A stretch of DNA of 64,000 nucleotides from positions 5,959-69,958 of the forward strand of contig CAVJLL010000005.1 in NCBI GenBank assembly GCA_963650385.1, in the 5' to 3' direction. Both the position numbers and the translations under genes were made by a program. Source of the DNA: Clostridium sp. CAG:508 (lineage in GTDB: Bacteria > Bacillota > Clostridia > Lachnospirales > Lachnospiraceae). Below the pieces are notes generated by a model. That model saw only the letters and a program-made list of their open reading frames with translations, did not search any database and was not told the origin of the DNA. Of the stretch, positions 32,743 through 53,256 are shown one piece after another (position 1 is the first letter of the stretch; each line of letters starts with the position of its first letter).

Positions 32743-32780
32743 TAAAAAGAGTCAGCCTCCTCGGCTGACTCTTTCCTTTT
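32743..32780. terminator. Bidirectional intrinsic terminator between the precursor gene and the giant gene
   Basis: TTAAAAAGAGTCAGCC-TCCTC-GGCTGACTCTTTCCTTTT, a 10-bp stem with an A-run on one side and a T-run on the other. Confidence 0.8.
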
Positions 32781-35700: not shown

Positions 35701-38700
35701 TGTTCCGTCTTCACTAATCTCCGGCTCTCCAATCAGTGTGTGGTTAGCTGCAGTAAATTCTGCATTTTGCAGAAAAATGTGCTGATACTTTTCCAACAGC
35801 GTAAATGTCACTGTACTGATATACTGGTGCCCGGCAATAAAGCAGTCGTCATCCGTAAGCGGCCGCTCGCTCTTCGTCTGCTCATCGTATTCCGTCCATT
35901 TCACCTTTACGGTCATGGCTTCCTTCAGCAGGCTGCTCAGGAACGTTTCCAGCTGATTGTCCTTTACCTTTCCGTATTCTTCACTGTACGAACCGTCTTC
36001 CTCTCTTGCCGAAATTCCGGAATTCTTCTCTGCAAACTGCTGCATTTTCTCTGCAGAAAAATCCATCCGATGAATTGCTGCAACATCGGTGCGCGCCTTC
36101 CATGTGTAGAGATAGGATCCGCAGCCGCACGGAGCTTCTGAAGTCCCGGCGTCCCCAGTTTCCTTCGGAACAACAGAAATTTCAATCTGCCCGGACGCGC
36201 TTTCACCGGCTGTGTCCTTCTTCACCGCATAGACACTGTATTTGATTCCCTCATAGGTAATGGTCTCCTTCGTACCGGTCAGGCCGCTTACGATCTGGCA
36301 GCTCTTCGTATTGCCGTTGACCCGGATGATCACCTTATCTTCCGCATAGAGGACATCATCCTCCCCCAGCTCCGTCACTGCCTTTGTTTTGTCATCCACC
36401 CTGTACAGCGTCGGCTTCTCTGTTTCTCTAAGATTTCCTGTCCTGTGCGTCACCGTGAGTACGGCGGTTTTCCCGTCGGCACTGAGCTCAATGTCCGCGT
36501 CATCTATGTCGTGATGGTATATGGAAAACTCCGTTTCCTTTGTAAATAATGACTTGGAATCCGCGTTGATTTTAATCTGCAGCCTGCAGCGATACTCTGT
36601 ATCCGCCTCGAAATGATCATCCGGATTTACTGCAACCCATGTTCCTTTTTCCTCACTGTCATCCGGCACCCATTTCTGCCATTCGCTGATGCTGTGTGTG
36701 TACAGCTTATCATCCAGCTTCGTGTTAAACAGGCTGTCCAGGGCCTTCGCCCACTCTTCAGACACCTCTTCTGCTGTACATGTCTTCGATTTGGTGCTTT
36801 CCCATCCGCCGTTCCACACAGGAATGGTGCCGAAGGAGTCGGCCAATGTGCTCATGTCATTCGCTGTCACGGTATACGAGGAGATCTGATCGGGATTTAC
36901 CTCCGCTATCGCATGCAGATACAGCAGATTCTCGCAGCCGCAGCTGTCGGTGCCGGCATCCGGAATAACCGCAAGCTCAATCTGTGACAGCATCGTTCCG
37001 GCTGTGCTTTGCCGAACCACGCGGTATATTTCTTTTCCGTCCTCGGTTTTCTCTCCAGTATCAACAAGCCCATCCACGATACACACATTGTATCCGTCCT
37101 CTGCCGAAACGGTGATTCTGTCTTTTACCTCCAGTTTTTCCTCGTAAGGAATGTTCTTTCCGGTATCTGCATGCTGCAGAGTGACAATTTCGCTCACCTG
37201 CTTCTTCACTGCCGGAAGCTTATGAACAACAACAATTGTTGCGGTTTGTCCGTCCTCACTGACCGAAATCTCAGGTCTCACCAACTGACCAATCCACGGG
37301 CTCGAACTATATGTTGAAAGCGTGTGGTTTGCCACTTTAAACACTGTATCCTGCAGGAAGATATGCTTATACTCTTTCAGCAGCGTAAATGTCACTGTGC
37401 TGACGTATTGGTGTCCGGCATAAAAATAGTCATTGTCGCGCAGTTCCCGCTTTATATGCGTTCCTTCCTCCAGCTCTGCCCATTTGACCGTTACTGTCAT
37501 GGCTCCCTTCAGCTTATCGTTCAGGAAGTTTTGCAGCTGGTTATCCTTTACCTGTCCGTATCCTTCACGCTCCGAGCCGCCTATTGCCTGAATCCCGCGG
37601 CTGTTTTCTGTGAACTGCTGCAACATTTCCTCGCCAAGCTCCAGCTTATGAATCGCTTCAATATCCATGCAGGCCTTCCAAGTATAGAGAAAAGACTCAC
37701 AGCCGCAGGTATAGAGATTACTCCCCTCCTCAATGGCCGTTGCCTTCGGCATGACTGCAATTTCAACCTGATCGGATGTGCCTTCACCGGATGTCGTCTT
37801 TTTCACCCGATAAACGGGGTAGTTGGTTTCCTTATAGGTGACGGTGTCCTTCGTTTCTACCAGTCCGCTTACGATCCGGCATCCCTGCAGATTTCCCTTT
37901 GTCAGTACGATGACCTCATCACCTGCATAAAGCGTGTCATTTATACTGTCCACTTCGTCTGTTACTTGCTTTTCGCCGTCATACGTCTCCACCACCCTGT
38001 ACAGCGTCGGTGTTACATCTTCAAGGGAAGGAAGGCCGGTCCTGTGATAGACCTTAATGGTTGCTGTCTTTCCATCACTTGTAAGATCTACCTTTACCGT
38101 GTTGTGCCCGGAAATGGAAAATTTCGTTCCTGAGGTGAACACTGCATCGTAATCATCATTGATTTTAATCTGTATTTCGCAGCTGTATTCCGTATCATCT
38201 TCAAAATGGTCATCCGGCCCCAGATCGACCCACGATCCCTGTACCAGATCCGGCCCCCATTTCTTCCATCCGCTTATGCTGTGCGAGTAGAGCTTGTTGT
38301 TAAACAGACTGTCCAATGCCCTTTTCCATTGTGCAGACACTTCCTCTGTCGTACATTGCCTCACCTTGGTGCTCTTCCATCCCTTACTCCACATCGGAAT
38401 TCCGCCAAGATTAACAGCAAATGCGTACATATCATTCGCTGATATCGTATACGAAGGGATCTGGTAGGTTGACGCTTCCTCTTCCGTTGTTTTCCGGATC
38501 AGTGCATAGATTCTCTTATCCTTTTCTACGTTTCCTTTCCCCTGGACCCATTCCGTATAATGGCAAACGCATTGCAGCACATAGTAATGCTGCATGGTCA
38601 ATCCGGCCGTATCCATGGCATACGTATAGGTTCCCCCGCGCGGTTCATACGTTGTGACCCCTTCTCTGTTCGGATTCGGCTGCACATCCTTAAAGACCTC

Positions 38701-40917
38701 AATTTGCGAATTCAGGGGGATCTCCTTCCCATCCTTATCCCTCAGCACAGAATCATTTTTCTCATCCAGGCGAATTCCCTCCGGAAGATTTTCGCCCAGA
38801 TCATATGCATACAGGGAAAGTGTACAGTTCACATGGCTCGAAATCCATGGTTCGTTTGTATATTGGATTTCAACCGGCAGGAGCTCCGACACATTGGTTA
38901 CCGTATAATCTTTATCCGATTCCGTCCTTGTCAGCTGCGCCGGCTGATGAATGCTCAGCTTGGTTGAATCAATATTAAATTTATCTATGCCTTTCTGATT
39001 TGTAAAAAAGCTAATCGTCCCGTAGCTTCCATAGGTTTCCGATTCGGAACTGCTGTCCCACACCTTCAAAAGGAATGGATTGCACGAATAATCCGCCGCC
39101 TTGTCATAAAAGATATTCCATTTTGCTTCATACCCACGCACGCGACCATCCCGATCATCCGCTTCACCGGGGCCCAGCGTCTCTTTTCCTTGCAGCTGAA
39201 GATATCGGTTCTCCTGCGGCTTCAGCTCCGACGGTACTGTTTCCGGTGTATAGGCTGTATACGCCAGCGACCTTCCCTGCAATGTATATACCCCAAAATT
39301 GAGGTGAAGCTCTCGATCTGTCAGATTCTTAAATGTAACATGCAGCATGATATTCCCGTCCTTATCTGCCGCAACATTTTCCTGTTTCATGCTGCAGGTA
39401 AAGGCAGCCGGCACCCCCTTATCCTCTGTATACGTAAAGAGTACCGATTCGTCGGTGTCCGGGAAGAGGATCGGTGTCGAGGTGATCGCATTGGAGCTAA
39501 AATACGAGGCCAGCTCCTTCATCGTAATCTTCCCATCTCCCTGATATCCATCCCGCTTTTCACCACTGTCGAGGCTGGAGATATCTGCGCCGTATGTGTG
39601 GTAGCTATCCACATAACGGTCATGGCCCAGCGCGTGCTCCATGGCCGAAATCAGCTCCGTTCCATACTCCTTCTGCTGAATTCCGGTTTCCATTCTGGTT
39701 GCAGAAGCAATGAAATAGAATTTATGTCCTCCTGCTGCGTTCGCTGCATCTGCGGTATCGGAAGCCTCTGCCGCTTCATCAAGATCATCATAAAACTCTG
39801 TAAGGAAGCTGTAGCCAAATGCATCCGACACTGCCTGCACCTGTTCCTGGACTTCCTGCGGAGAGCTCTCCTGTTCGGCATCCTCGTCCTCTTCGTCCAG
39901 ATCCTCATACAGCGCGGCTGCGTTTACCGCATTTCCGGACAACATTCCTCCGGAAAAGCAGCTTGCCAGCACGACAAATACTTTCCCGTTCAGTTTCTTC
40001 AGATTGGACTTCAGCTCGCCGGCGCTGATGTTATTGCCTCCCTCCAGCGCCAGATAAGAAGAGCCGTCTCTTGTCTGGTTTCCATGTCCGATATAGCAGA
40101 AGAAGGTATACGAATCTTCATCCGTCTGCTCTGCAGCGGCACTGACCGCGTCCCAGATCTTCGATTTCTGGTCCTCCTGACTGTTGTACGTGACGCCAAT
40201 CAATGTGATATCTTCACTCTGAAACTCATTGGTCTGACTGAGGGTATCCCGCATTGCCTCCGCATCCTTTTTCGGAGTCTCTCCAAGATCACTACCCGTC
40301 ATATACACCAGGATAGCTCGCCCCTTCACCTGCCGATCTTCCGAAGAATTTTCCGACGCAGCTGCTGCAGACTTTCCATTGGTATCGCCTTCTGCGGAAT
40401 TTACGGATGAAGCCTTTTCTGCAGAATTCGACTGCGCATCCTCTTTTGCGGACTCTGTCTGTGTACTGCCTTCGGAGGAATTCGCCGATGCAGCACCCTC
40501 CGTGGAGCCTTCCTTTGCACTGCCTTCGGAAGAATTTCCCGACGCAGCACTCTCCGTAGAACCTTCCTTTGCACTGCCTTCGGAAGAATTTTCCGATGCC
40601 GCGCCTTCTGCGGAATCTTCCTTTGTACTGCCTTCGGAGGAACTCACCGATGCAGCACCCTCCGTAGAATCTTCCTTTGACCTGTCTTCGGAAGAATTTT
40701 CCGATGTTATCGCCGAAGCCTTGACCTCATTCTCTGATGCAGTCTCGGAGTTTCCCTCCGCAGAAGATTCTCCCGTCTCTGCCGCAGAGGAACTCTCCTG
40801 TGTGGTTTCTGCATATGCGGTCAATGTGTTCGTCGAAGCGGCCGCAATGGGCGCAAAAGCCAGACCGGCACTCAGCGTAAATGCTATGATTCGATGCCAA
40901 AGCTTTGTCTTTTTCAT
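32779..40917 (-). CDS. Giant (2712 aa) secreted protein: signal peptide, Ser/Glu-rich spacer, clostripain-like (C11, clan CD) peptidase domain, CGC-delimited tandem repeat modules, C-terminal sorting-signal-like anchor
   Basis: I place the start at ATG 40917 (MKKTKLWHRIIAFTLSAGLAFAPIAAASTNTLTAYA, AGGGGAAG RBS), because the track's extra 115 codons overlap the upstream gene. RAILVYMTGSDLGE, then YIGHGN (His) and VVLASCFSGG (Cys at nt 39958-39960), fit the C11/clan CD His-Cys dyad. Seven CGC motifs occur at module borders. The C-terminus is IQETGDES, then a TM helix and RQRRRKAG. Confidence 0.8.
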   Translation of the reverse strand: MKKTKLWHRIIAFTLSAGLAFAPIAAASTNTLTAYAETTQESSSAAETGESSAEGNSETASENEVKASAITSENSSEDRSKEDSTEGAASVSSSEGSTKEDSAEGAASENSSEGSAKEGSTESAASGNSSEGSAKEGSTEGAASANSSEGSTQTESAKEDAQSNSAEKASSVNSAEGDTNGKSAAAASENSSEDRQVKGRAILVYMTGSDLGETPKKDAEAMRDTLSQTNEFQSEDITLIGVTYNSQEDQKSKIWDAVSAAAEQTDEDSYTFFCYIGHGNQTRDGSSYLALEGGNNISAGELKSNLKKLNGKVFVVLASCFSGGMLSGNAVNAAALYEDLDEEDEDAEQESSPQEVQEQVQAVSDAFGYSFLTEFYDDLDEAAEASDTADAANAAGGHKFYFIASATRMETGIQQKEYGTELISAMEHALGHDRYVDSYHTYGADISSLDSGEKRDGYQGDGKITMKELASYFSSNAITSTPILFPDTDESVLFTYTEDKGVPAAFTCSMKQENVAADKDGNIMLHVTFKNLTDRELHLNFGVYTLQGRSLAYTAYTPETVPSELKPQENRYLQLQGKETLGPGEADDRDGRVRGYEAKWNIFYDKAADYSCNPFLLKVWDSSSESETYGSYGTISFFTNQKGIDKFNIDSTKLSIHQPAQLTRTESDKDYTVTNVSELLPVEIQYTNEPWISSHVNCTLSLYAYDLGENLPEGIRLDEKNDSVLRDKDGKEIPLNSQIEVFKDVQPNPNREGVTTYEPRGGTYTYAMDTAGLTMQHYYVLQCVCHYTEWVQGKGNVEKDKRIYALIRKTTEEEASTYQIPSYTISANDMYAFAVNLGGIPMWSKGWKSTKVRQCTTEEVSAQWKRALDSLFNNKLYSHSISGWKKWGPDLVQGSWVDLGPDDHFEDDTEYSCEIQIKINDDYDAVFTSGTKFSISGHNTVKVDLTSDGKTATIKVYHRTGLPSLEDVTPTLYRVVETYDGEKQVTDEVDSINDTLYAGDEVIVLTKGNLQGCRIVSGLVETKDTVTYKETNYPVYRVKKTTSGEGTSDQVEIAVMPKATAIEEGSNLYTCGCESFLYTWKACMDIEAIHKLELGEEMLQQFTENSRGIQAIGGSEREGYGQVKDNQLQNFLNDKLKGAMTVTVKWAELEEGTHIKRELRDNDYFYAGHQYVSTVTFTLLKEYKHIFLQDTVFKVANHTLSTYSSSPWIGQLVRPEISVSEDGQTATIVVVHKLPAVKKQVSEIVTLQHADTGKNIPYEEKLEVKDRITVSAEDGYNVCIVDGLVDTGEKTEDGKEIYRVVRQSTAGTMLSQIELAVIPDAGTDSCGCENLLYLHAIAEVNPDQISSYTVTANDMSTLADSFGTIPVWNGGWESTKSKTCTAEEVSEEWAKALDSLFNTKLDDKLYTHSISEWQKWVPDDSEEKGTWVAVNPDDHFEADTEYRCRLQIKINADSKSLFTKETEFSIYHHDIDDADIELSADGKTAVLTVTHRTGNLRETEKPTLYRVDDKTKAVTELGEDDVLYAEDKVIIRVNGNTKSCQIVSGLTGTKETITYEGIKYSVYAVKKDTAGESASGQIEISVVPKETGDAGTSEAPCGCGSYLYTWKARTDVAAIHRMDFSAEKMQQFAEKNSGISAREEDGSYSEEYGKVKDNQLETFLSSLLKEAMTVKVKWTEYDEQTKSERPLTDDDCFIAGHQYISTVTFTLLEKYQHIFLQNAEFTAANHTLIGEPEISEDGTTAEIKILHTLPAVKSLHKIVTLQHADTGKSIPYKEELEVKDRITVSAEEGYSVSIISGLADTGEVTAEGKKIYRVVREGSDGKTLSQIALTVIPKAGSDGCGCENLLYQHAIAAVNPDQISSYALTANDMSTLADSFGTIPVWNGGWESTKTKTCTAKEVSEEWAKALDSLFNTKLDDKLYTHSISEWQKWVPDDSEEKGTWVAVKPDDHFEADTDYRCRLQIKINTGFKSLFTKETEFTIYQHDIKEEDVELSTDGKTAVLTVTHRTGNLKETEKPTLYRVDDNTKEVTELGKDEILYAGDEVIIWINGSVKNAQIVNGLAATTDTIPYKGKTCRIYTVKKDTSGEGASGQIEISVVPRETGSAGASDAPCGCGSYLYTWKACLNTAAIRHFNLNEKVMRQFAVNGCGIPTGDGWKNGSYRGVYGRVKDNLLEKLLNKMLSGSMTVNVKWTGYDEQTKSEQPLDDDGYFIAGQQYVSTVTFTALDEYQHVFLQNTEFIAANHTLVGTPQISDDGKTATIKILHKLPVTEPVRSIVVLRRADTGKIIPYEEELKANDRITLSAADGYSVYIMGGLIDTGETTADGKKIFRVVRGSSGGRSWSHIELMVITEADSDGCGCENQLYQHAIAAVKRQSRDSGQNADTHSSGSASAAAGTGKQLVKNYILGDAYLEYYIAQAGGIPVGDGWASGSLSKLDSKVQNNLLQTYLTSVTGGRYTYSVSWSQYDAASGMETILLPDAEFREGRQYVSTVTIQAAKGYNAVFSDQTVFAFGDHILLGDPEISADGSTATIRILHTIGELDENALKLYWADTGAEIADQTSLEPGDRVRVEIAQGYRYRILCGLQATDEYGVYTVAYGRSSDGELGGIEVLFYKQDTGDGLNCGCGTLLYKHSVGDVGGYGSADGQVKGIRKFILNRNADVISLDAQNADSVSKGPAIQETGDESRSWMWLIFSAGSLMGLYAWYRQRRRKAG
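33046..37707 (-). repeat. In-frame long tandem repeats inside the giant gene (period about 1542-1578 nt; two alternating module types)
   Basis: CGC codon triplets lie at 33046-54, 33844-52, 34579-87, 35392-400, 36121-29, 36934-42 and 37699-707, giving offsets of 1542 nt for 34579->36121 and 35392->36934. The near-identical shadow ORFs at 35147-35347 and 36689-36889 are also offset by 1542 nt. Confidence 0.9.
40466..40735 (-). repeat. Five tandem 54-nt repeats encoding the Ser/Glu-rich spacer (SSEGSxKEGSTEGAAS...)
   Basis: CTGCCTTCGGA(A/G)GAA recurs at 40466, 40520, 40574 and 40628, with a CTGTCTTCGGAAGAA variant at 40682, an exact 54-nt period. Confidence 0.9.
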
Positions 40918-40958
40918 TCGATGCTTCCCCTGTTGTTCATTTCCGCGATACCGCTGCC

Positions 40959-42353
40959 CTATGCCCGGCAAAGATACCCACGCCAGTACAGCTCCTGCAG
41001 CAGATTCAAAACCCTGTCTGTCCCCGCTGCTCCCAGATTCAACCCTCTTAATACGTTTCCCGGCTCCTGCGGATGCTGAAGCTGCTGCATGGCCTGCAGC
41101 AGGACCGGATGCGCATCCATGTAGTAGCCCGCATTGTCCGCCAGGAGCACAATTTGCTTTTTCCCCGTCCCGGTGCTGTTCTCCTCCGGAAACCACTTCG
41201 TCTCCGTCAGTCTTTCTCCAACCAGCATGCGTACATTGCGGTTGATCTGCACCGGTCTCCACAACGGAAGGCTTCCGAAGGCATGACTTCGGAACAGCTG
41301 CGTCAGGCCGCTCCGAAAGCTCTCCGCATCATGAAACTCGGCGGTCCCCCAGACGCGATACCCCTTCGGAAACTGCTCCGACGGGAGCTCCGGCTCTATA
41401 AATTCCATCAGGCCGTCCACCATATTCACGCGCACGCCTGCAATGCAGCTGATGCTGTATCGCAGGAGCTTTTCCTTCGGCAGCTTCTTTCCCTGAGCGG
41501 CTCTGCCCGATTCCGAATACCGGTTCACCGACTCCGGATTATTGCTTAAAACCTCCACATGCTCCAGCTCCATCGGCGTAAACAGATCCATCAGCTGCCG
41601 GAAATGCTGCAGCGATGTAGCCGACATCCGATAAGACACCCGCTGCCGCAGGCAGTCCGGTCCAATCCACGACAGAAGGCTTTTGGTTCTGTCCGGGTCA
41701 CGCTGCGCCGCTGCCGAAGTTGTCTGCGGAACGGTTCCGTATATGTCCCGCATATCCGCCAGAAATTTCTCATAGTCCGGATTGTCCATCGGCTCTGTCC
41801 CAAAGTAGCACGGGCAGCTATCCGCAATGTCCCCCAGCAGTTCTCTGGTAATGGTCAGGACATCCCGCCACAGCTGCCGGTGCTCTTTGGTGTAAAGGTA
41901 ATTCTCCTGCCATGGCTTCGCCTGAAATCCGCAGAACGGACACTGGACCCTGCAGCCGCTGGATAATTCGAACGCCGCCGGAAAGTAATGTATGTTCGGA
42001 TGCTCACGCATCGCTGCGCTTTCCAGAAAGCAACGGTTCCGCACGATATTGGCATAACGCCAGAGGCTCTCTGCCGCATACCGGTCCCGCGCCACCAGCC
42101 GCTCTTCCTCTCTCACGATCGCCCGGCTCCGCGCCGTATATTCCTTCAGAAACGGATTGGCTGCAATTTCTTCTTCCGCCGGATTTCCCCGGCAAATCTG
42201 ATGAATTGCATCCAGTACGGTCTCCGCATCCAGCGCAATCCCGGATTTCTTAAAATGTGCTGCGATCTCGTCCGCGGCATGCAGGCGGAAGTCAGGATCC
42301 GAGTAAAACCACTCCATCATCCGCTTGCATTCAGCATATTCGCGTGCTGTCAT
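40959..42353 (-). CDS. Radical SAM enzyme without SPASM domain; possibly a PoyD/OspD-like RiPP amino-acid epimerase
   Basis: CRVQCPFC (C-x3-C-x2-C) at nt 41931-41954, followed by a FGTEPMDNP SAM-region-like motif. The N-terminal AECKRMMEWFYSDPDFR resembles the N-termini of proteusin epimerases as I remember them. ATGA overlap with the upstream SPASM gene. Confidence 0.6.
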   Translation of the reverse strand: MTAREYAECKRMMEWFYSDPDFRLHAADEIAAHFKKSGIALDAETVLDAIHQICRGNPAEEEIAANPFLKEYTARSRAIVREEERLVARDRYAAESLWRYANIVRNRCFLESAAMREHPNIHYFPAAFELSSGCRVQCPFCGFQAKPWQENYLYTKEHRQLWRDVLTITRELLGDIADSCPCYFGTEPMDNPDYEKFLADMRDIYGTVPQTTSAAAQRDPDRTKSLLSWIGPDCLRQRVSYRMSATSLQHFRQLMDLFTPMELEHVEVLSNNPESVNRYSESGRAAQGKKLPKEKLLRYSISCIAGVRVNMVDGLMEFIEPELPSEQFPKGYRVWGTAEFHDAESFRSGLTQLFRSHAFGSLPLWRPVQINRNVRMLVGERLTETKWFPEENSTGTGKKQIVLLADNAGYYMDAHPVLLQAMQQLQHPQEPGNVLRGLNLGAAGTDRVLNLLQELYWRGYLCRA

Positions 42354-43723
42354 TTCTTCTCTCCGCCCTCGGCAGCTGCCTTCTGTGCTTGTGCCGCAGC
42401 CTGAGCGGCCTGTCGACGCTGCTGCTCCTGTTTGGCTTCATAGTGGAGCTCCAGCAGATCCTCCAGATTATCCCGGAAATAGGAACACGAGCTATGCTTC
42501 ACGTCCGTATGCAGATTTTTCTGCCGGATTCTGTGACATCCTCCGTCACAAATCGGGAAACAGAAGCACTCCTTACACTCTTGCGAATCCAGATAGGAGC
42601 ATCCCTCCATTCCTTCTGCCAGAAGTGCCATATTCCAATTGTCAAAACGATCAATGGATCCGATGACCTTTTCCTTAAGCCCTACGTCATCCCAACACTT
42701 ATACAGCTCTCCGTCCGGTCCGACAACATAGGCATTGCGGCAGTTCAGGGTACATCCCGGTCCCTTTTTCTGCGGGAACAGCGGAAGCGCCGTGATTCTC
42801 TCCTCTCTTGCCATTCTGGATATGAACTCTCCCTGCGCCTTCGGCTCAAAGAAGCAGCTGCAGTCCGGATGATCATCTCCCTTTACAAAGCCGGGATATA
42901 CCGTAATTCTCTTCCCGAAATCCTTTGCATACCGTTTCCGAATCATGCGGAATACATCTGCATACTCGTCCTCATTGCGGCTGTCTACATTCACGCGAAT
43001 ATGAATCATTCCCTTGAAATTCGTGGCAAGAATCCGATCAATATTATCCAGGATCACATCGTAGGTCGGTGCTCCGTTCTTTAAATATCTTCTCCCGTCG
43101 TGCGTCTCCTTCCTGCCGTCCAGCGTAATCTGAAGGTATCCGATGTGCAGATCGTTTAATTTTGCAATTTTGTCATCCGTCATCAGGTAGCCATTTGTGA
43201 TCATACTGGCAGTATAGGTTTTATCCATATCCTTCAGGCGTTTATCAATACTGAGAATCCGGTCAAAGGCCAGAAGCGGCTCTCCTCCGTACCAGATGAT
43301 CGACAGATTGTCTGCCTTGAAGCTCTTAATAAAGCGGATCAGCTTATCTTCCACCTCCTGGGTCATCGGTTTTCCTGTGCGGTTTCCCTCAAAGCAATAG
43401 CTGCAGTCAAAATTGCAGGCTCTGGTGACTGCAAGCGTCAGTGTAAGAGTATTCCCCGCATAACGCCGCGTCAGATTTCTCATCTTGATAATGTTGTACA
43501 GATCGTCGTCCCGATGGTCTTCTACCAGATAGCCCAGCGCACGCAGCCGCATGTACAGCATGGGGATCTTCGAATAATCGTATCCCTCCGGATCCTGCAT
43601 AATCCCCCGGATAATCTCCACTTCCTCATCCGGTACCTTCATAAAGGCGCGCGATGCCGAATGGAACAGCAGCCATCCATTCCTCTGTGATTCAAACAAC
43701 TTGCTGTATCTTGACCATTTCAT
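42350..43723 (-). CDS. Radical SAM/SPASM-domain peptide maturase (sacti-/ranthipeptide-type thioether synthase candidate)
   Basis: CNFDCSYC at nt 43394-43417, WYGGEPLL, and a C-terminal auxiliary-cluster Cys pattern (CTLNC...YKCWDD...CSYLDSQECKECFCFPICDGGCHRIR). About 95 aa precede the cluster motif, which may form a peptide-recognition region. AAGGAGAG RBS. Confidence 0.85.
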   Translation of the reverse strand: MKWSRYSKLFESQRNGWLLFHSASRAFMKVPDEEVEIIRGIMQDPEGYDYSKIPMLYMRLRALGYLVEDHRDDDLYNIIKMRNLTRRYAGNTLTLTLAVTRACNFDCSYCFEGNRTGKPMTQEVEDKLIRFIKSFKADNLSIIWYGGEPLLAFDRILSIDKRLKDMDKTYTASMITNGYLMTDDKIAKLNDLHIGYLQITLDGRKETHDGRRYLKNGAPTYDVILDNIDRILATNFKGMIHIRVNVDSRNEDEYADVFRMIRKRYAKDFGKRITVYPGFVKGDDHPDCSCFFEPKAQGEFISRMAREERITALPLFPQKKGPGCTLNCRNAYVVGPDGELYKCWDDVGLKEKVIGSIDRFDNWNMALLAEGMEGCSYLDSQECKECFCFPICDGGCHRIRQKNLHTDVKHSSCSYFRDNLEDLLELHYEAKQEQQRRQAAQAAAQAQKAAAEGGEKK

Positions 43724-43738: not shown

Positions 43739-45910
43739 TTATCCGGTCACCGTCTGGTAGCCGGCAAGTCTGTAAAACAATCCCTTCTGCTCCATCAGTT
43801 CTTTATAGCTTCCAATCTCTGCAATGCTGCCCTTTTCAAGTACAACAATGCGGTCACAGTGCACGACTGTTGACAACCGGTGTGCCACCACAATGCGTGT
43901 TGCATTATACGTATTCAGGCTCTGACAGATCTTCTCCTGCGATACATTGTCCAGTGCACTGGTTGCCTCATCAAACAGAAGAACGGTCGGCTGTCCGACC
44001 AGCGCCCTGGCGATCAGAATCCGCTGTCTTTCTCCGCCCGACAGAGTTCTGCCCTGCTCTGATACGAAGGTTTCCAGCCCCATCGGCATTTTCTCCACAA
44101 CATCGGTCAGCTGCGAATCCTCCACTGCCTTCTGAATTTCCTCCGGTGCAGCCTTGGGACAGGTCACCGTAATGTTGCGGCGGATCGTGCCGGAGAAGAG
44201 TCGTCCCTCCTGCAGCACCACGCCCAGCTTCTTTCTGAATTCCGGCAGGCAGAGCCTCTCCAGCGAAATTCCATCGTAATAGATCTGTCCCTTCAGCGGG
44301 GTTTCAAATCCCAGCAGCAGCCGAAGCAATGTGGATTTTCCGCAGCCGGTCTCACCGACAATTCCAATATACTCTCCCGGCTTTATATGAAGGGAAATAT
44401 CCTTCAATACCATTTCCCCCTTTTTTTCATAGCAGAAGCTCACATGGGAAAGCTCAATATCTCCCTTCAGCGCTTTCGGGATATCCCCTTCCAGACTGCT
44501 CTCCGGCTCCATCCGCAGCAGCTCGGATGACTCCACCAGTGTGGGGATCGAGGATACGATATCCATCCCCGCATTGGCCACACTGCACATTGCGGCTGTA
44601 AACGCCGTCAATGCTGTCAAAAAGCCCATAAATATGCCAATATTGATGTCCAGGTTCTGTGTCGCATAGATCCAGTACAGCACCAGCATAGACAAGGCAC
44701 TTCCGGATGTACTCAGGGCAGAGGAAAGTCTTTTGTTCCAGGCAATACTCTGATCCGCAAGCTCCGCCCCCGAAGCCAGCTCCATGTGTTCACATACTAC
44801 GTCGTCCTCCGCTCCTGCCGTTCGAATGGATTCAATTCCCTGCAGAGACTGATAGAGGAACGATCGCTGCCGACCGATGGCTCTTGATTTGTCCTGCTGC
44901 GCCCTTCGGTCCAGAAAGCCTATCCCTATCGTAATGGCAACATTCAAAACCACAAATCCGGAAGAAATATGACTCAGGAGCGAGGAATACTGATGCATCT
45001 TCCAGATGTAGATCAGCGAAAAGGCACCGCGAAGGAGGATCTGCATCGCATTCTGAAATGCACTCATATAGGTTGAATTCATTTTCTGAATTCGATAGGC
45101 CTGCTCTGCACTCTCCTTCTCACGAAAGCACTTCTCCGGGAGATGGAAAATGTGATCATAGATTGCCCCCTGCAGTGCATAGCGAACGATACTGGTAATG
45201 CGATAGTTTTCCAACGCGCCCGTTACTGTAAAACACAGGTTTGCCGCCATGCATGAAAGAAGAACAACTCCAATGCCAATCAGCTGATCCACATCGCCGG
45301 TTGGTATAATCTCATCGAAGATCAGCTGATTCAATGTTGCAAGCTGTACCGAGATCAGTGTGACAATTCCCGTACACCCTATGCAGAACAGGAAATCAGA
45401 CGGGCGAAAGGCCTTCAATGCCAATCTGAAAATATCCTGGAAGGTTACCTTTTTCGCAGGAAAGGTCCAATGGAACTCTACGGCCGTATTTTCCAGCTCC
45501 TCCAGCTCTTTCTTAGAAGCCGTATGCGAGCTTTTGTCTGCCGGATCAATCAATGTCACAGTTCCCCTGTGTCCCGGTTTACAGATCAGATATTCAGGGC
45601 TTCCCCTTTTCCTGCACAGAATGGGATAGGTCAGCATCCGGTTCCAGTTCTTATCCAGTGTTACGGATCTGGAAATGAACCCGGAAACTCTGGCAATGTC
45701 CTCCAGTCCCGCATCCTGCCCGCATGCCTCGCGCACCCGTTCATAAGGTGCAATCGTAATCCCCATCAGCTGACAAAGGTAATTGGCCGCGTCATAAAGC
45801 GAATTGCCGCTCGGCTTCATACGGCTGAACTTACGTTTGGCTTTCTTCTCGAACGTAGATAATATGATATTGCAAGTGCGAGTCTGTACGGTCGTCATAT
45901 TCTCTGACAT
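43739..45910 (-). CDS. NHLP-type bacteriocin export ABC transporter, permease/ATPase subunit (no active peptidase)
   Basis: 723 aa with a 6-TM exporter core, Walker A GETGCGKST, LSGGERQR and LLFDEATS. The N-terminal region lacks a C39 catalytic Cys context. Confidence 0.8.
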   Translation of the reverse strand: MSENMTTVQTRTCNIILSTFEKKAKRKFSRMKPSGNSLYDAANYLCQLMGITIAPYERVREACGQDAGLEDIARVSGFISRSVTLDKNWNRMLTYPILCRKRGSPEYLICKPGHRGTVTLIDPADKSSHTASKKELEELENTAVEFHWTFPAKKVTFQDIFRLALKAFRPSDFLFCIGCTGIVTLISVQLATLNQLIFDEIIPTGDVDQLIGIGVVLLSCMAANLCFTVTGALENYRITSIVRYALQGAIYDHIFHLPEKCFREKESAEQAYRIQKMNSTYMSAFQNAMQILLRGAFSLIYIWKMHQYSSLLSHISSGFVVLNVAITIGIGFLDRRAQQDKSRAIGRQRSFLYQSLQGIESIRTAGAEDDVVCEHMELASGAELADQSIAWNKRLSSALSTSGSALSMLVLYWIYATQNLDINIGIFMGFLTALTAFTAAMCSVANAGMDIVSSIPTLVESSELLRMEPESSLEGDIPKALKGDIELSHVSFCYEKKGEMVLKDISLHIKPGEYIGIVGETGCGKSTLLRLLLGFETPLKGQIYYDGISLERLCLPEFRKKLGVVLQEGRLFSGTIRRNITVTCPKAAPEEIQKAVEDSQLTDVVEKMPMGLETFVSEQGRTLSGGERQRILIARALVGQPTVLLFDEATSALDNVSQEKICQSLNTYNATRIVVAHRLSTVVHCDRIVVLEKGSIAEIGSYKELMEQKGLFYRLAGYQTVTG

Positions 45911-45922: not shown

Positions 45923-48103
45923 TTATCCCTCGAGCAGTCTGCGATATTCCCCTTCCTGCTGCAGCAAGTCCTCATGCCTCCCGCATTGAACAATTCTTCC
46001 CCGGTCCATTACCAGAATCAGATCACAGCTGCGGATTGCCGACAGGCGATGTGCCACGATCACGCAGGATATTCCTCTTTCCAGGATATTCCGCATCACC
46101 TTGTCTTCCGTTTCCGGATCCATGGCACTCGTCGCCTCGTCCAGAAGGAGTATGGCAGGCTTTTCCGCCAGAGCTCTTGCGATCTGCAGCTTCTGCCGCT
46201 GGCCGCCGGAAAGATTTGCGGCACCTTCCTTCAACCGATACTCCATTCCGCCCGGCAGTGTATTGACCATGTCATAGGCATCCGCACATTTCAGTGCCTC
46301 CACCATCTCCGCCTCGGATATCTCCTTGCTCCAGAACGTCAGATTCTCACGTATGGTCCCTGCGAAAAAGAATGCACTCTGTCCGACTACAGCAATATTC
46401 TTCTTCAGAAGCTGTGGTGTCATATCCTGTATTCGAATCCCATCATACCGAATTTCACCGCTCTGCGGATATAAAATACCGGCCAATATGCGTACAAGCG
46501 TGCTCTTGCCGCAGCCGGAGGCTCCCGTGATTCCCAGGCAACTCCCCGGCATGAGCCGGAAGCTGAGTTCCTGCAGCACCGGTGCCTGGGTAGTGCGGTA
46601 GGAAAAGGTGATATTGCGAACCTCAATCTCACCCTGCAGCGGCTTTACCGGCTGATTGGCTTCCTCTTCCTTCCGGAAACGGGCATCCTCTTCGGTCCCC
46701 TCGATATCCTCTATGCTGAGCATTTCCGCCTTCAGTGTCTGAATGCTCTGGCTGTAGCCGATCAGTTCGTTCATCGGCTGCGTAAATCCGCCCAGGAGCT
46801 GCACGAAAGCGGTCAGCATGCCTGCGGTAATGCTGCCGTTAATGACCAGTACGCCGCCGATCATCAATACCACAATCTGGAAAATGCCGGAAATAACGGA
46901 CGGAAATGCACTCAGAATCTGCTGCGCCTTTCCCATGTCCTGTTCACTCCCGGTCGTCCCGCAGAAGGCCCCCAGGATGTCACTTGCATAATCTGTCTCT
47001 GCTCCGTTCGCCTTGATGGTGCTGAAGACCGACAAGCCGGCGCATAATAGGCCGGAAAGCCGGTTCTGATCCTGGCGCTGCTTCAGCGCCATTTCGCGAA
47101 GGACCTGCACCGGCAGAAGGCTTAAAACCATGTTCAGCACGGTTCCGAGCACGCCGATTGCCGTCAAGAGCGGACTGTATGTCCACAGCATCAGCAGATA
47201 AAATATCGATTCAAAGACATTCAGCACCGCATCAATCAGCTTATCTGCAAGAAAGCTGTTGATATCACCGTTGTTCTCTACCCGCTGTGACATCTCCCCC
47301 AAATATCTCTGATCAAAAAACGGGATCGGAAGGCGAAATAAATGCCGCAGCAGCTGATAGTCGGTCAGTATATTCAGCTTCAGCTTCAATTTGGCCAGGG
47401 TCGCTGACCGGACCCACCCGAGCACGATCTGCAGAACGTATACTCCCGCAAGGCACGTCAGCAGCAGCACAAGCTGACCGGTTCTGCCATTCATGACGAC
47501 ATGGTCCACATACAGCTGCAGCAGGATTGACATAAAAATGCACGGAAAAACAAGAAGTCCTCCCGCCAGCAGCAGATAGACCACCGTACTCGTCTGTCCC
47601 AAAAGGCGCTCCTGCAGCAGCCGCAGCAGATCGCTGGGCTGTTCTTTTCTCTGGAAGTGCTCCGTTTCTTCGAAGTACAGCACAATGCCGGTAAATTCCC
47701 GGTCCAGCTCCTCCCAGGTGATCTTCCGGTGCCCCCTGGCCGGGTCATTGAGGTATACCCGTTTGCCGCGAATGCCTTCCAGAACCACAAAGTGATTAAA
47801 TCCCCAGTGCAGGATACAGGGCAGCGGAAATTTCCGGAGCTCCTCCACTGATTTGGAAAAGCCATGCCCCTTCATGCCATAGTGCTCTGCCGCCAGAACC
47901 AGGTCTGCTGCACTGCTGCCGTCCCTGGATACTCCGCAGACATACCGCAGCTCCTCCATCGAGACATTGCAGTGATGATATTTCAGAATCATGAGGAGGC
48001 TGGCCGCGCCGCACTCTGCAGCCTCCACCTGAAAGACCTCCGGTGTATGAACCCGCCGCGGTTGTTTTTGTGTATCTGACTTCCGTCGTCTGCTCTTCAC
48101 CAT
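45923..48103 (-). CDS. NHLP-type bacteriocin export ABC transporter with N-terminal C39 peptidase domain
   Basis: 726 aa. The C39 triad context is intact: QVEAAECGAASL (Cys), NHFVVLE (His), LNDPARG (Asp). ABC motifs GASGCGKST, LSGGQRQK and LLLDEATS. TAATG overlap with the upstream adaptor gene. Confidence 0.88.
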   Translation of the reverse strand: MVKSRRRKSDTQKQPRRVHTPEVFQVEAAECGAASLLMILKYHHCNVSMEELRYVCGVSRDGSSAADLVLAAEHYGMKGHGFSKSVEELRKFPLPCILHWGFNHFVVLEGIRGKRVYLNDPARGHRKITWEELDREFTGIVLYFEETEHFQRKEQPSDLLRLLQERLLGQTSTVVYLLLAGGLLVFPCIFMSILLQLYVDHVVMNGRTGQLVLLLTCLAGVYVLQIVLGWVRSATLAKLKLKLNILTDYQLLRHLFRLPIPFFDQRYLGEMSQRVENNGDINSFLADKLIDAVLNVFESIFYLLMLWTYSPLLTAIGVLGTVLNMVLSLLPVQVLREMALKQRQDQNRLSGLLCAGLSVFSTIKANGAETDYASDILGAFCGTTGSEQDMGKAQQILSAFPSVISGIFQIVVLMIGGVLVINGSITAGMLTAFVQLLGGFTQPMNELIGYSQSIQTLKAEMLSIEDIEGTEEDARFRKEEEANQPVKPLQGEIEVRNITFSYRTTQAPVLQELSFRLMPGSCLGITGASGCGKSTLVRILAGILYPQSGEIRYDGIRIQDMTPQLLKKNIAVVGQSAFFFAGTIRENLTFWSKEISEAEMVEALKCADAYDMVNTLPGGMEYRLKEGAANLSGGQRQKLQIARALAEKPAILLLDEATSAMDPETEDKVMRNILERGISCVIVAHRLSAIRSCDLILVMDRGRIVQCGRHEDLLQQEGEYRRLLEG

Positions 48104-48720
48104 TATTCATCCTCAAACAACTGCTCTAATGCAGGAATTCCTACTGCAATCGGACGTTCCTTCGATGTCACAATGGACATGCTCACGAAGGTCCCGTTAT
48201 GAAGCGACAGCGATCCTCCCCTGGGGTTGCTCCAGTAGTATCCGTTTTCCATCTGCGAATCCTCCTGCAGCTTGCAGATCACGGTCATCATCGGTGTATT
48301 GCTCTGCTGATATGCGCGCACCAGGGCATCATTTCCCAGAAGTGACTGCATTTCCTCCTCTGTGGCCGCATAGTCATCCACATAAGAGATAACCCCCTTC
48401 ATATGTCCGTATTTCTGCTGGTTATAGCCGGCCATGTACATGGTCACCTCCATGCCTACCTCAAGCGATTTACCGCTTGTCATCGGCAGAAAGGTTATGA
48501 TCTCCCCCTCGGATGTGACCCCGGGATGATAGATTCCTGTTGCACTGACATTCTCCGTAATCCATCCGGTACACGACCAGACCAGCACGGAAATCACGAT
48601 GATGAAGCCTCCCAGCAGGATCAGCCACATGGGTGCTGAGGTCACTGTAATCATCTTATCCAGCTGCATTACCGTCGAATTCTCATCCGCTTTTTTGCGA
48701 TAGATTCCTTCCATTCCCAT
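48103..48720 (-). CDS. Short HlyD-like secretion adaptor (205 aa)
   Basis: One N-terminal TM helix (MWLILLGGFIIVISVLVW) followed by a beta-rich segment (GMEVTMYMAG...GHMKGVISYVDD). It is the first cistron of the export/maturation operon, with a GGGAGG RBS. It is much shorter than the roughly 400-aa HlyD adaptors I know. Confidence 0.6.
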   Translation of the reverse strand: MGMEGIYRKKADENSTVMQLDKMITVTSAPMWLILLGGFIIVISVLVWSCTGWITENVSATGIYHPGVTSEGEIITFLPMTSGKSLEVGMEVTMYMAGYNQQKYGHMKGVISYVDDYAATEEEMQSLLGNDALVRAYQQSNTPMMTVICKLQEDSQMENGYYWSNPRGGSLSLHNGTFVSMSIVTSKERPIAVGIPALEQLFEDE

Positions 48721-48816
48721 TGGCCTCCCATTGGTCCCATGGCCGTTCTCTGTTGATGTACAGCTCTTCCATGTCCCGTCAATCTGTACAGCGTGTTCAC
48801 ATTACATCTGCGCACC

Positions 48817-52432: not shown

Positions 52433-52433
52433 A

Positions 52434-53243
52434 TCACTGTTTCCTGTAAATTCTGTTCTTCACCTTATCATACAGCGCCGCCGTCGCCGGAGAGGAGGCA
52501 AGCTTTTCCCGCAGCGGCTGCAGGCTCAGGAGCATCGCCAGGCGATAGCGCAGGCACTCCCCGGCGCCGAAATACTGCTGCGTAATCTCCCGGTGCTCTC
52601 TTGCCGAGCATTTCCGGTTCTCCTTCGTCTCCGAAAAGCCCCCGCCCTCGTAATCTGCTATGATCCGATCCATCGCATGCGCCTCGGCCCCGGCGCACAG
52701 CACGCACCACAGGAAATGCTCGTAATCCGCACGGACGCGGTAACGAAGATCGAACTGCCGCTCCTCGAGCAGATCCCGGCTGTAGAAGCACGCCTGGTGG
52801 CAGGGGAGGTTCCGGTACATCGCAAAATGCGTCATTGCCGGCTTGGCGGCCACCCGCTGCCCGGTCCGCTTCTCCCACACGTCTCCGTAGTATATGACCG
52901 GTCGGCTGCTCCCGTCCCACTCCTTCTGGATGCAGCTCACGGTCTCCGACAGGACCTTTGCATCATGCAAAAGATCGCCGCAGTTGAGAAAATACAAAAA
53001 TTCTCCCTTCGCCGCTGCGACTGCCTGATTCATTCCGTCGTAAATCCCATTGTCCCTGCTCTTTATCACGCGGATTCTGGGATCCTCCGGAAGGCGCTCC
53101 AGGCTCCCGTCCGTAGAGCCCGCATCCTTTATGATCATTTCGTAGTCCTGAAATTCCTGAGAGAGGACGCTTTGCACGGTCGCCGCCAGCCGATCCCCCG
53201 GCTGGTAGCAGGGCGTTATGATGCTGAAAAAGGGATTGTTCAT
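52434..53243 (-). CDS. Glycosyltransferase family 2
   Basis: FSIITPCYQPGDRLAATVQSVLSQ...IIKDAGSTDGS N-terminal GT-A pattern. GGGAG RBS. Confidence 0.85.
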   Translation of the reverse strand: MNNPFFSIITPCYQPGDRLAATVQSVLSQEFQDYEMIIKDAGSTDGSLERLPEDPRIRVIKSRDNGIYDGMNQAVAAAKGEFLYFLNCGDLLHDAKVLSETVSCIQKEWDGSSRPVIYYGDVWEKRTGQRVAAKPAMTHFAMYRNLPCHQACFYSRDLLEERQFDLRYRVRADYEHFLWCVLCAGAEAHAMDRIIADYEGGGFSETKENRKCSAREHREITQQYFGAGECLRYRLAMLLSLQPLREKLASSPATAALYDKVKNRIYRKQ

Positions 53244-53256
53244 AATTAACTCCCGT

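Follow-up and report, generated by a model that had tools for sequence, protein, structure and literature searches.

In a 64,000-nucleotide stretch of a Clostridium sp. CAG:508 contig (CAVJLL010000005.1; hereafter the window), two overlapping genes encode two different radical SAM enzymes, and this raises the question of whether both act on the same peptide and, if so, with which chemistries. We report what the genes encode, which catalytic residues are conserved, the precursor, and how consistently these parts occur together in related loci. Our data support the idea, first guessed in an annotation made from the letters of the sequence (the first-pass annotation), that one member of the pair is a SPASM-type enzyme that cross-links cysteines and the other an amino-acid epimerase of the PoyD type. 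The operon belongs to a conserved gene cluster, so far unstudied, of bacteria from gut and rumen, with predicted functions in the modification and export of a very long, Cys-rich peptide. Very probably this is a RiPP system whose NHLP precursor is acted on by the two radical SAM enzymes; that the specific chemistries are thioether-type cross-links introduced by the SPASM enzyme and epimerisation by the PoyD-like enzyme, on this NHLP precursor, is the reading we lean towards, with clearly less assurance. The features referred to are as follows (positions in the window).

31760..32713, plus strand: precursor gene, 317 aa, convergent with the operon (TIGR03793, NF038108)
32749..32771, no strand: hairpin GAGTCAGCC-TCCTC-GGCTGACTC with flanking A-run and T-run (sequence reading)
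32779..40917, minus strand: giant surface protein, 2712 aa (Pfam/NCBIfam, motif list)
40959..42353, minus strand: PoyD-family radical SAM enzyme, putative peptide L-to-D epimerase, 464 aa (TIGR04517)
42350..42353, minus strand: ATGA stop/start overlap of the SPASM gene and the epimerase-like gene (sequence reading)
42350..43723, minus strand: radical SAM/SPASM peptide maturase, 457 aa (Pfam, NCBIfam, CteB alignment)
43739..45910, minus strand: second ABC permease/ATPase subunit of a probable NHLP export system, 723 aa (TIGR03797)
45923..48103, minus strand: ABC exporter, 726 aa, C39 peptidase domain at the N-terminus (TIGR03796)
48103..48720, minus strand: short HlyD-like secretion protein, 205 aa (TIGR03794)

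Both enzyme reading frames were recovered at exactly the coordinates of the first-pass annotation, and every motif quoted there (CNFDCSYC and GGEPLL in the SPASM protein, CRVQCPFC in the PoyD-like protein) is present in the translations, which also hold CKECFCFPICDGGC and KRMMEWFYSDPDFR, respectively. The proposed ATGA coupling can be read directly in the sequence (...GAG AAG AA-ATGA-CAGCA...), where the TGA of the SPASM gene and the next ATG overlap by 4 nt. The two reading frames are no chance finds, given their radical SAM model matches (detailed below) and homologues of up to 98% identity on independent contigs. For the three export proteins the top models are the NHLP-specific ABC1, ABC2 and HlyD, each with a score under its own cutoff. 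The C39 exporter scores 807 bits with TIGR03796 (NHLM_micro_ABC1; cutoff 853), matches Pfam Peptidase_C39 (E 3e-36), ABC_membrane and ABC_tran, and is predicted to cleave after the leader Gly-Gly and to export the product; the second ABC subunit scores 605 bits with TIGR03797 (NHLM_micro_ABC2; cutoff 709). The HlyD-like protein is a half-length form with an N-terminal transmembrane helix and, of the HlyD of NHLP systems, just the C-terminal third (107.7 bits with TIGR03794, cutoff 156.2, profile positions 290-420 of 421), and its relatives are likewise approximately 200 aa. The intergenic gaps beside the operon (40917-40959 and 48720-48817) contain no peptide gene. A possible D-amino-acid link, the class IV aminotransferase gene at 30373-31410, was rejected, as it is not conserved beside the cluster in relatives. 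A scan for promoters and terminators was set aside because the counts were no higher than in shuffled sequence.

The precursor gene, which lies approximately 8 kb from the enzyme genes on the opposite strand and is transcribed separately, was located solely through synteny in related contigs; a six-frame regular expression for the classic NHLP motif ([AKRQ].W.D..[FYWL]) found no precursor. It has its own ribosome binding site (AAAGGAG) and an extended -10 element (TGTTACAAT). The leader comprises aa 1-85 (nt 31760-32014) and ends in LQSVYGG, and the core, aa 86-317 (232 aa), is composed of a hydrophobic stretch (SAISFLLIFSACGAAISVG), an Ala/Gly/Cys array and an acidic tail. TIGR03793 (leader_NHLP) matches over positions 3-77 of 77 with E 3e-8 and 33.4 bits (cutoff 50.9), and the CefA model NF038108 gives 29.2 bits (cutoff 30). 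The CefA model spans 65 positions and its match falls within the core, which suggests that CefA apparently lacks the 85-aa NHLP leader. As this is the only leader-type reading frame in the window, the idea of a single NHLP precursor holds. In the AlphaFold2 model the leader is confidently helical and the core disordered (pLDDT below 50). We know of no RiPP of known chemistry with a core approaching 232 aa.

The core contains 26 cysteines, and 15 of the 25 spacings between them equal five residues, with most others being 6, 10, 11 or 15. The repeat can be written as C-[G/A]-[A/G]-[D/N/A..]-A, and Cys is the sole periodically conserved residue in all cores. Of 660 Cys contexts, 53% have D, N or E at position +3 after Cys (background, 13%), which hints at an acceptor. 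In the window's own core this position is often Ala, Lys or His, and a single Cys-to-Asp/Asn rule is therefore insufficient to account for all repeats. The pentad A-[D/N]-A-C-G recalls the pentapeptide repeat A(D/N)LXX; a quadrilateral beta-helix fold of the core was unsupported, with no Pfam pentapeptide match to the precursor at E ≤ 1 and a core that AlphaFold2 models as disordered.

Relatives of the leader were gathered by a full HMMER scan (a word-indexed protein search with the leader gave no candidates). All 70 members of the leader family match TIGR03793 (best E 1.6e-19), ten also match nitrile hydratase alpha and 12 the CefA model; the leaders form 278 clusters at 50% identity, and Clostridia of rumen and gut are where the family is centred. 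In the 45 related loci having both enzyme genes, the pair is always within one locus; the SPASM gene is immediately followed by the PoyD-like gene in 34, and the two overlap in 26 (by 4 nt in 20 and by 8 nt in six). Every locus in which the PoyD-like protein scores at least approximately 200 bits to the window protein has a SPASM homologue, with one exception (L011, 325 bits, on a 7.5-kb contig), and the lower-scoring loci L043 and L069 have one too. Where SPASM homologues served as the starting point, each of four contexts carries a PoyD-like gene. In a neighbour-joining tree the SPASM-linked PoyD-like proteins constitute one clade; the one exception lies on a short contig.

Of the enzyme-pair loci, 40 yielded an NHLP precursor. 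The window and, by automatic classification, 18 of these 40 loci have precursors solely of the hydrophobic Cys-array type, which leaves both enzymes without any other candidate substrate there. The hydrophobic stretch, (I/L)SF.LI.S.C.AA...GPC, is present in essentially every locus and short non-hydrophobic peptides are optional. A short relative from L091 reads ...AGG and then SCAGNVCGANGCAGQITK.

This distribution bears on how the two enzymes might share the substrate. The epimerase could act where the core begins, on its hydrophobic stretch, giving a polytheonamide-like segment for membrane insertion, with the SPASM enzyme confined to the Cys array or, where a locus holds two kinds of peptide, acting mainly on the short Cys peptides. 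Both the near-universal hydrophobic stretch beside optional short peptides and the hydrophobic nature of known PoyD substrates (PMC8326336) count in favour of such a division of labour. We regard it as possible though doubtful; it would refine and not contradict the explanation in which both enzymes modify the NHLP precursor.

Turning to the SPASM protein, it matches Pfam Radical_SAM (PF04055, E 9e-19), with C103/C107/C110 as the radical SAM cluster cysteines. Of the two Pfam models that the first-pass annotation suggested searching, only this one matched; PF13186 (SPASM) gave no match even at E 10 and with the isolated C-terminus; the SPASM assignment is therefore based on the alignment with CteB and anSME and on invariant cysteines. 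Using the pattern C...GxxxxC, then Cx2Cx5Cx3C, then a distal C as criterion, we find G338-x4-C343, C383-x2-C386-x5-C392-x3-C396 and C413, which together with C290 and C324 make eight auxiliary cysteines. All 11 cysteines are invariant across 16 homologues (52-81% identity), and the auxiliary-cluster residues, the loss of which would have refuted the initial assignment, are kept relative to CteB and anSME and family-wide. The N-terminus MKWSRYS is also conserved throughout the family, which favours the start at 43723 over a shorter 430-aa call on near-identical contigs.

Among NCBIfam models the best for the SPASM protein are Clo7bot (TIGR04334, 216 bits) and CefB (NF038107, 214 bits). As both cutoffs are 600, the protein is not a CefB or Clo7bot member and represents a related but distinct subfamily; these two families are uncharacterised and the scores are about one-third of the cutoffs, so their chemistry is not transferable. 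The window core, with its cysteines mostly five residues apart, resembles that of the CefA/CefB "Cys-every-fifth" system. CefA/CefB and Clo7bot (NF038108/NF038107 and TIGR04334) are bioinformatic definitions only, and no paper on them was found in a search that covered subscription journals thinly. The ten top matches (Clo7bot, CefB, TIGR04463, FlmE/OhkG, geopeptide, PapB, CcpM, SCIFF, ScfB-related orphan and nif11) are all maturases of Cys-rich peptides or thioether maturases; the scores with the PapB, SCIFF and CcpM models are far under the cutoffs.

Could the SPASM enzyme then leave the cysteines in another state, e.g. as formylglycine as with anSME, as free metal-binding thiols, or untouched with C-C or C-O cross-links made elsewhere? 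SPASM enzymes catalyse many reactions, the nearest curated families are uncharacterised and anSME is the second-best solved homologue (E 5e-10). Moreover, eight instead of seven conserved auxiliary cysteines may mean full ligation of both auxiliary clusters, as in anSME but not in CteB, the auxiliary cluster of which reportedly binds a substrate Cys. Against this, the thioether synthase CteB (5wgg) is by far the best solved homologue (E 1e-19, SPASM region included), the ten top models are of the kinds just listed, and Cys alone is periodically conserved in the cores. We consider a non-thioether outcome unlikely.

The SPASM thioether RiPPs (CteB/SCIFF, PapB/freyrasin, AlbA and QhpD; sacti- and ranthipeptides) and the window have in common a radical SAM enzyme with the full set of SPASM cysteines, as well as cores rich in Cys in which acidic or amide residues recur at a set distance from the cysteines. 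Freyrasin has Cys-X3-Asp repeats and the window core is similar, but the repeat here is C-x-x-[D/N]-x-C and not C-x3-D. The window also differs in having an NHLP leader in place of a short leader, and an obligatory epimerase-like partner.

That partner, the PoyD-like protein, matches Pfam Radical_SAM with E 3e-5 and a single NCBIfam model, TIGR04517 (PoyD-type RiPP epimerase), with E 5e-91 and 305.8 bits. The score is 19 bits under the cutoff of 325, and profile positions 1-377 of 446 align, which leaves the C-terminal approximately 90 residues unmatched; the 18 relatives in the alignment all hit this model too (best E 6e-172). The epimerase assignment of the first-pass annotation thereby gains support, and no unrelated radical SAM subfamily was matched. 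PoyD-type epimerases are encoded with NHLP or Nif11 leader precursors, and the window gene likewise has a precursor with an NHLP-type leader. The cluster cysteines C134/C138/C141 (CxxxCxxC) are invariant in alignments of 18 and 70 sequences, and C303 is the only further invariant Cys in both. Past residue 303 there is a single Cys, C462, and hence no Cys-rich C-terminal block and no SPASM or twitch auxiliary-cluster domain, in agreement with the early remark that this protein lacks a SPASM region. PoyD has one strictly conserved extra Cys, C372, proposed to be the hydrogen donor (PMC8326336). In an alignment composed of relatives other than PoyD itself, C303 stands out as the likely counterpart of C372 and as a conserved candidate hydrogen donor. 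The DNPDYE and PQTT motifs are shared with cyanobacterial members named epimerases in the sources.

A PDB sequence search with the PoyD-like protein gave nothing relevant. In its AlphaFold2 model (pLDDT 95.3) the C-terminus has a strand-strand-three-helix layout, and Foldseek returned weak matches to BtrN, EpeE and RRE-containing proteins; the C-terminal approximately 100 aa are probably RRE-like. EpeE (YydG), which acts on the epipeptide YydF, is a radical SAM peptide epimerase with a Cys hydrogen donor, as we propose for the PoyD-like protein. The match between them is a weak one to the radical SAM core (E 1.6e-3), and a sequence search found no similarity; EpeE belongs to an unrelated subfamily with its own auxiliary-cluster domain and without an NHLP leader.

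It is conceivable that the PoyD-like protein is not an epimerase and instead gives another C-alpha radical outcome (S-C-alpha bonds or backbone cleavage), or that its main role is to bind the leader in partnership with the SPASM enzyme. Its separate clade, its constant SPASM companion, the score under the TIGR04517 cutoff with the C-terminal approximately 90 residues outside the profile match, and the translational coupling, which suggests a 1:1 complex, would fit such a role. On the other hand, the cluster cysteines, C303, DNPDYE and PQTT are all kept and would be needless in a non-catalytic partner, and we find this alternative distinctly improbable compared with epimerisation.

The window resembles proteusins (polytheonamide PoyA/PoyD, landornamide OspA/OspD, AvpD and PlpD) in its probable NHLP-type leader, its putative PoyD-family enzyme with identical cluster motif and a single conserved extra Cys, and its probable NHLP-type ABC/C39 export genes. 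The differences are that the window enzyme belongs to a separate, SPASM-linked clade, whereas classical family members in the same scan (Nostoc, Bradyrhizobium, Selenomonadaceae and Planctomycetota) are without a SPASM maturase; that Ala/Gly/Cys pentad cores reach 230-400 aa here and proteusin cores are approximately 50 aa or less; and that the hosts are mainly gut and rumen Clostridia. Several radical SAM enzymes acting on one precursor are known from polytheonamide (PoyB, PoyC and PoyD).

The giant gene follows on the same strand as the operon. Its product has a signal peptide, a caspase-like domain (Pfam Peptidase_C14, 21.5 bits, cutoff 21.4; NF047832 caspase, E 2e-5), approximately seven modules with terminal CGC[EG]xxLY and a C-terminal membrane anchor, and the gene is found at the same position only in the closest relatives (L001, L002, L004, L006, L008 and L086-L088); its tie to the peptide system is uncertain. 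That this protein is an additional or the real substrate of one or both radical SAM enzymes is very improbable: its gene directly follows the epimerase-like gene, a position kept in the closest relatives, and its Cys motifs recur at module ends, but it carries a Sec signal peptide and no NHLP leader, it is missing from most enzyme-pair loci, and those of sufficient length all have NHLP precursors instead. Between the convergent precursor and giant genes, the hairpin at 32749..32771 probably acts as a bidirectional terminator, as judged from its sequence (it is absent from the consensus-scan list).

We therefore return to the model in which both enzymes modify the NHLP precursor. The precursor (31760-32713) would be synthesised with its NHLP-type leader, which would offer the core to the two radical SAM enzymes encoded by the translationally coupled genes. 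The SPASM enzyme would convert the regularly spaced cysteines into sulfur-to-carbon (thioether-type) cross-links, and the PoyD-family enzyme would abstract C-alpha hydrogens and return a hydrogen from Cys303, turning selected L-residues into D-residues. The C39-peptidase ABC transporter would then cut after Gly-Gly, with export involving the second ABC subunit and the short HlyD-like protein. For this system we infer, from the genes and their conservation, the action of both enzymes on the window precursor, the kind of cross-link, the epimerisation and any biological activity. Several observations count against this model: the precursor is transcribed apart from the enzyme genes, its core is exceptionally large, the epimerase and leader scores fall short of their cutoffs, PF13186 gives no match, the nearest named SPASM families are uncharacterised and scored at about one-third of their cutoffs, and position +3 in the window core varies. 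On the same genomic grounds, both chemistries on one precursor would make a hybrid class.

Where relatives encode short peptides, a membrane-active bacteriocin, often of two peptides, is the likeliest product. For the window lineage, we offer as speculation, to which we give little credence, that the product is a protein-sized RiPP and not a small bacteriocin: a core of approximately 230 aa with a hydrophobic N-terminal anchor, a sulfur bridge every five residues and interspersed D-residues could serve at the cell surface as a rod or coat component that proteases cannot attack, perhaps in concert with the giant caspase-domain protein.

A literature search, in which subscription journals were thinly covered and absence is thus unproven, yielded no description of a two-radical-SAM NHLP system, nor, within the same scope, of a natural system in which one precursor meets both a PoyD-type epimerase and a SPASM cross-linker. 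Among radical-SAM modifications, D-amino acids and thioether bridges protect peptides most strongly from proteases, and the two together on one precursor would represent a new combination of chemistries. With approximately 45 loci, the system is a family and not a one-off. Peptides of 15-50 aa encoded in related loci provide tractable substrates for direct testing in E. coli. The cores also appear unusually large among known RiPP kinds, and the repeat of more than 200 residues in the window lineage prompts the questions of what length a RiPP core may attain and what role such a product has. If true, a protein-sized RiPP would far exceed in size every other radical-SAM-modified ribosomal product, and would represent a new biological material rather than an antibiotic.

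The cluster is built around two overlapping radical SAM genes, listed here with the genes that surround them.

Genes of the cluster and its neighbours in the window
42350-43723, minus strand: SPASM-type radical SAM ORF, 457 aa (translation, motifs)
40959-42353, minus strand: PoyD-like radical SAM ORF, 464 aa (translation, motifs)
5' of the enzyme genes, minus strand: C39-peptidase ABC transporter and a second ABC subunit (best models, two NHLP-bacteriocin export subunits)
48103-48720, minus strand: short HlyD-type secretion protein, 205 aa (NHLP-system HlyD model, C-terminal third only)
31760-32713, plus strand: precursor gene, window equivalent, convergent with the operon (synteny)
48817-56591, minus strand: glycosyltransferase run directly 5' of the operon (GT2, two GT1, GT2, EpsG-type polymerase, GT2)
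30373-31410, minus strand: class IV aminotransferase, downstream neighbour
29375-30307, plus strand: EamA transporter, downstream neighbour
25973-29071, minus strand: EAL+GGDEF protein, 1032 aa, downstream neighbour

On translation, the 457-aa protein has the motifs CNFDCSYC, GGEPLL and CKECFCFPICDGGC, and the 464-aa protein has CRVQCPFC and KRMMEWFYSDPDFR with a single Cys beyond residue 303. The junction between the genes reads GAGAAGAA-ATGA-CAGCA, i.e. stop and start overlap by 4 nt, and the ORFs, motifs and ATGA coupling described in the first-pass annotation are thus borne out by translation and the junction sequence. Both proteins match the Pfam Radical_SAM model (E 9e-19 for the 457-aa protein; E 3e-5, under the gathering score, for the 464-aa protein). 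The ATGA coupling suggests that the two enzymes may form a complex.

The 457-aa protein scored best against full-length "radical SAM/SPASM" peptide maturase models, with Clo7bot at 216 bits and CefB at 214 bits; next came the TIGR04463, FlmE/OhkG, geopeptide, PapB, CcpM and SCIFF maturases, every score being far under its cutoff; one alternative is that this enzyme carries out other chemistry. Among solved structures the thioether synthase CteB (5wgg; E 1e-19) is the closest homologue; the two align through the SPASM region, and anSME also aligns there. Among 16 homologues (52-81% identity) 11 Cys are invariant, three in the radical SAM motif and eight in the C-terminal half, the latter including G338-x4-C343 and C383-x2-C386-x5-C392-x3-C396. 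The CteB/anSME alignment and the eight C-terminal Cys support the SPASM identity proposed from the sequence at first reading. The protein gave no match to the Pfam SPASM model, which we read as a weakness of the model for this clade and not of the SPASM assignment.

For the 464-aa protein the sole NCBIfam family matched was TIGR04517, "radical SAM family RiPP maturation amino acid epimerase" (rSAM_PoyD), with E 5e-91; the 305.8-bit match spans profile positions 1-377 of 446 and falls 19 bits short of the curated cutoff, 325. We found 97 homologues, and the distant cyanobacterial and actinobacterial ones carry this epimerase name in their source records. The Cys that stay invariant, both among 18 aligned sequences and among 70, are C134, C138 and C141 of the radical SAM cluster and just one more, C303. 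According to a review (PMC8326336), about 70 PoyD homologues share one extra strictly conserved Cys, PoyD C372, the proposed hydrogen donor that completes epimerisation, and the C372A variant is inactive. C303 fits this description and is the presumed positional counterpart of PoyD C372. The assignment to the PoyD-like epimerase family, which had rested on resemblance of the N-terminus, is thus supported at the sequence level by the sole TIGR04517 match and the invariant C303; the alternative is a non-epimerase role for this protein.

No solved structure related by sequence to the 464-aa protein was found. AF2 models it with very high confidence (pLDDT 95.3), and in the PDB the radical SAM core finds weak matches in BtrN and in EpeE, an unrelated epimerase. 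Weak matches of about 100 columns were also obtained to the RRE-containing PDB entries ThcOx, MibB, TbiB1 and MccB, which, because of the secondary structure of the protein, most likely correspond to residues ~398-460 of the model. Residues 379-399 (41158-41220, minus strand) form a ~20-residue insertion, LTETKWFPEENSTGTGKKQ, that is absent from all aligned homologues and is the sole low-confidence part of the model (pLDDT 63-66). Within the first ~40 aa a conserved motif, FKRxxExxxADPxFR, resembles the NHLP leader motif AxxDxxFRxxLxxDP, and the N-termini of two of 18 family members match NHLP-clan peptide models (NF038399, E 6e-10); these likenesses hint that the enzyme may carry a leader-like domain.

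One genome per species was scanned, and the window proteins were then run by phmmer against every fetched locus. Wherever the PoyD-like protein scored at least about 200 bits to the window protein, a SPASM homologue (415-890 bits) was present, except in L011; L043 and L069 score lower, yet have the SPASM homologue. It is absent from more distant members of the PoyD family (Nostoc, Bradyrhizobium, Sinorhizobium, Selenomonadaceae, Planctomycetota; 155-195 bits), with one exception: L076 (Acidobacteriota, 165 bits) has the SPASM gene, encoded on the opposite strand. Neighbour joining groups the 39 SPASM-linked sequences in a single clade with L011, a 7.5-kb contig, as the lone exception, and all four contexts seeded from SPASM homologues (one a Treponema MAG) hold a PoyD-like gene and NHLP precursors. 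The PoyD-like gene lies directly 3' of the SPASM gene in 34 of the 45 loci with both, overlapping by 4 nt in 20 and by 8 nt in six. The pairing is meaningful on several independent counts. The hosts are chiefly rumen/gut Lachnospiraceae and other Clostridia MAGs; Lactobacillales MAGs are few, and Acidobacteriota and Treponema contribute one MAG each. Contigs near-identical to the window occur in assemblies GCA_963635265.1 and GCA_963638965.1. Four loci, L006 (CAVAUJ010000024.1), L008, L016 and L020, have a typically clostridial cluster in MAGs labelled Succinivibrio, Sarcina, Bacteroides or Chloroflexi, labels that may be binning or labelling errors and not the true hosts.

No peptide gene was found inside the operon. 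Homologues of 51-63% identity have the same gene order around them, and their contexts also encode 334-351-aa proteins with an NHLP-leader-like start followed by Ala/Gly/Cys arrays. The window equivalent is preceded by a separate ribosome-binding site and -10 element, and a hairpin lies between it and the convergent gene for a giant protein. Residues 9-85 match TIGR03793 end to end (E 3e-8, under cutoff), the leader ending in LQSVYGG, and the core scores 29.2 bits (cutoff 30) against the "Cys-every-fifth peptide CefA" model. The 232-aa core (Ala 25%, Gly 19%, Cys 11%) starts with a membrane-like stretch, SAISFLLIFSACGAAISVG, and 15 of 25 Cys-to-Cys spacings are exactly 5, the remainder mostly 6, 10, 11 or 15. 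In the AF2 prediction the leader forms three helices with good confidence and the core is disordered. HMMER, run in full over 1.84 billion representative proteins, gave 278 leader relatives (76-413 aa); 70 of 70 tested matched the NHLP leader model and 12 of 70 the CefA model.

Among related loci there are two kinds of core. Type A, present in essentially all loci, has a hydrophobic start, (I/L)SF.LI.S.C.AA...GPC, followed by an array of Cys pentads, from a single one up to more than 30; type B cores are short and without the hydrophobic stretch (e.g. SCGGNACAANGCAGQVTK), with C-terminal Lys or Arg frequent. Type A occurs alone in 18 loci, mostly as long arrays, and a short type A with at least one type B in 18 loci, a layout that recalls, by analogy, two-peptide bacteriocins. 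Both kinds share the same leader in L013, L027, L031-L035, L069, L076 and L090-L092. Cores of short relatives are, for example, ...AGG|SCAGNVCGANGCAGQITK (L091) and ...AGG|ISFVLVVSACAAAFAVGPCPADACAGKLGFK (L090), and most short cores end in Lys/Arg. Over 660 Cys in 63 distinct cores the repeat consensus is C-[G 43%/A 31%]-[A 53%/G 24%]-[D 26%/N 20%/A 20%/E 7%]-[A 54%]-C. The enrichment of Asp/Asn/Glu at +3 after Cys points, as a lead rather than a test, to acceptors in side chains (ranthipeptide-like); in the window core this position is often Ala, Lys or His. Some long precursors (up to 482 aa) have acidic tails that extend past the Cys array:

L018 11325-12704: long precursor with acidic tail
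L030 11364-12812: long precursor with acidic tail and repeated DDSGDGLDAPDDINDTGDGLDVPD units
L010 7615-8625: long precursor with acidic tail

A second gene of the precursor type was not found within the window, and the earlier proposal of one NHLP precursor with both enzymes agrees with the single NHLP-leader gene at 31760-32713 (plus strand). This precursor is of type A, and therefore both enzymes, if both active, must act on it; they might divide the labour along the core. Another, unlikely candidate substrate is the giant surface protein (2712 aa; 32779-40917, minus strand), whose gene comes directly 3' of the epimerase-like one. Besides a signal peptide and a C-terminal membrane anchor, it contains a Ser/Glu-rich linker, a caspase-like domain (His in YIGHG, Cys in LASCFSGG) and about seven modules of ~250 aa with CGC[EG]xxLY at each module end; among related loci, only the closest (L001, L002, L004, L006, L008 and L086-88) have the gene in this place.

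The export genes 5' of the enzyme pair are separated by 15 nt or less. The 205-aa HlyD-type protein is made up of a transmembrane helix and the final third of the model (421 positions); this short form (~202-205 aa) is kept in relatives, and some more distant loci have HlyD-matching ORFs of ~570-630 aa. The glycosyltransferase run looks like an exopolysaccharide cluster, and relatives have different genes in its position; in L001 and L002 a transglutaminase-like protein is encoded there. Adjacency of the aminotransferase, EamA and EAL+GGDEF genes (25973-31410) to the cluster was not conserved in relatives.

The identities of the genes, the conservation of catalytic residues and of gene linkage, and the architecture of the precursor are directly observed. 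Beyond these, we propose that the NHLP leader would recruit both radical SAM enzymes; the SPASM enzyme would convert the periodic Cys to thioether-type bridges, and the PoyD-type enzyme would invert selected C-alpha centres via C303. The C39 domain would then cut after GG, and the ABC pair and short HlyD protein would export the product.

The system has the leader, exporter and epimerase family in common with proteusins; with sacti- and ranthipeptides it has in common the type of SPASM enzyme and cores rich in Cys. Its Cys periodicity is that of CefA/CefB, a purely bioinformatic NCBI family to which, by score, it does not belong. In the literature, with incomplete coverage of subscription journals, we found no description of an NHLP precursor with PoyD-type and SPASM enzymes, and, likewise with incomplete coverage, no paper on CefA/CefB or Clo7bot. 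Two traits are unusual, the apparently obligatory pairing of epimerase and SPASM enzyme and the length of the cores, up to 230-400 residues, and on its genes it is apparently an uncharacterised RiPP family, full and conserved, with predicted chemistry.
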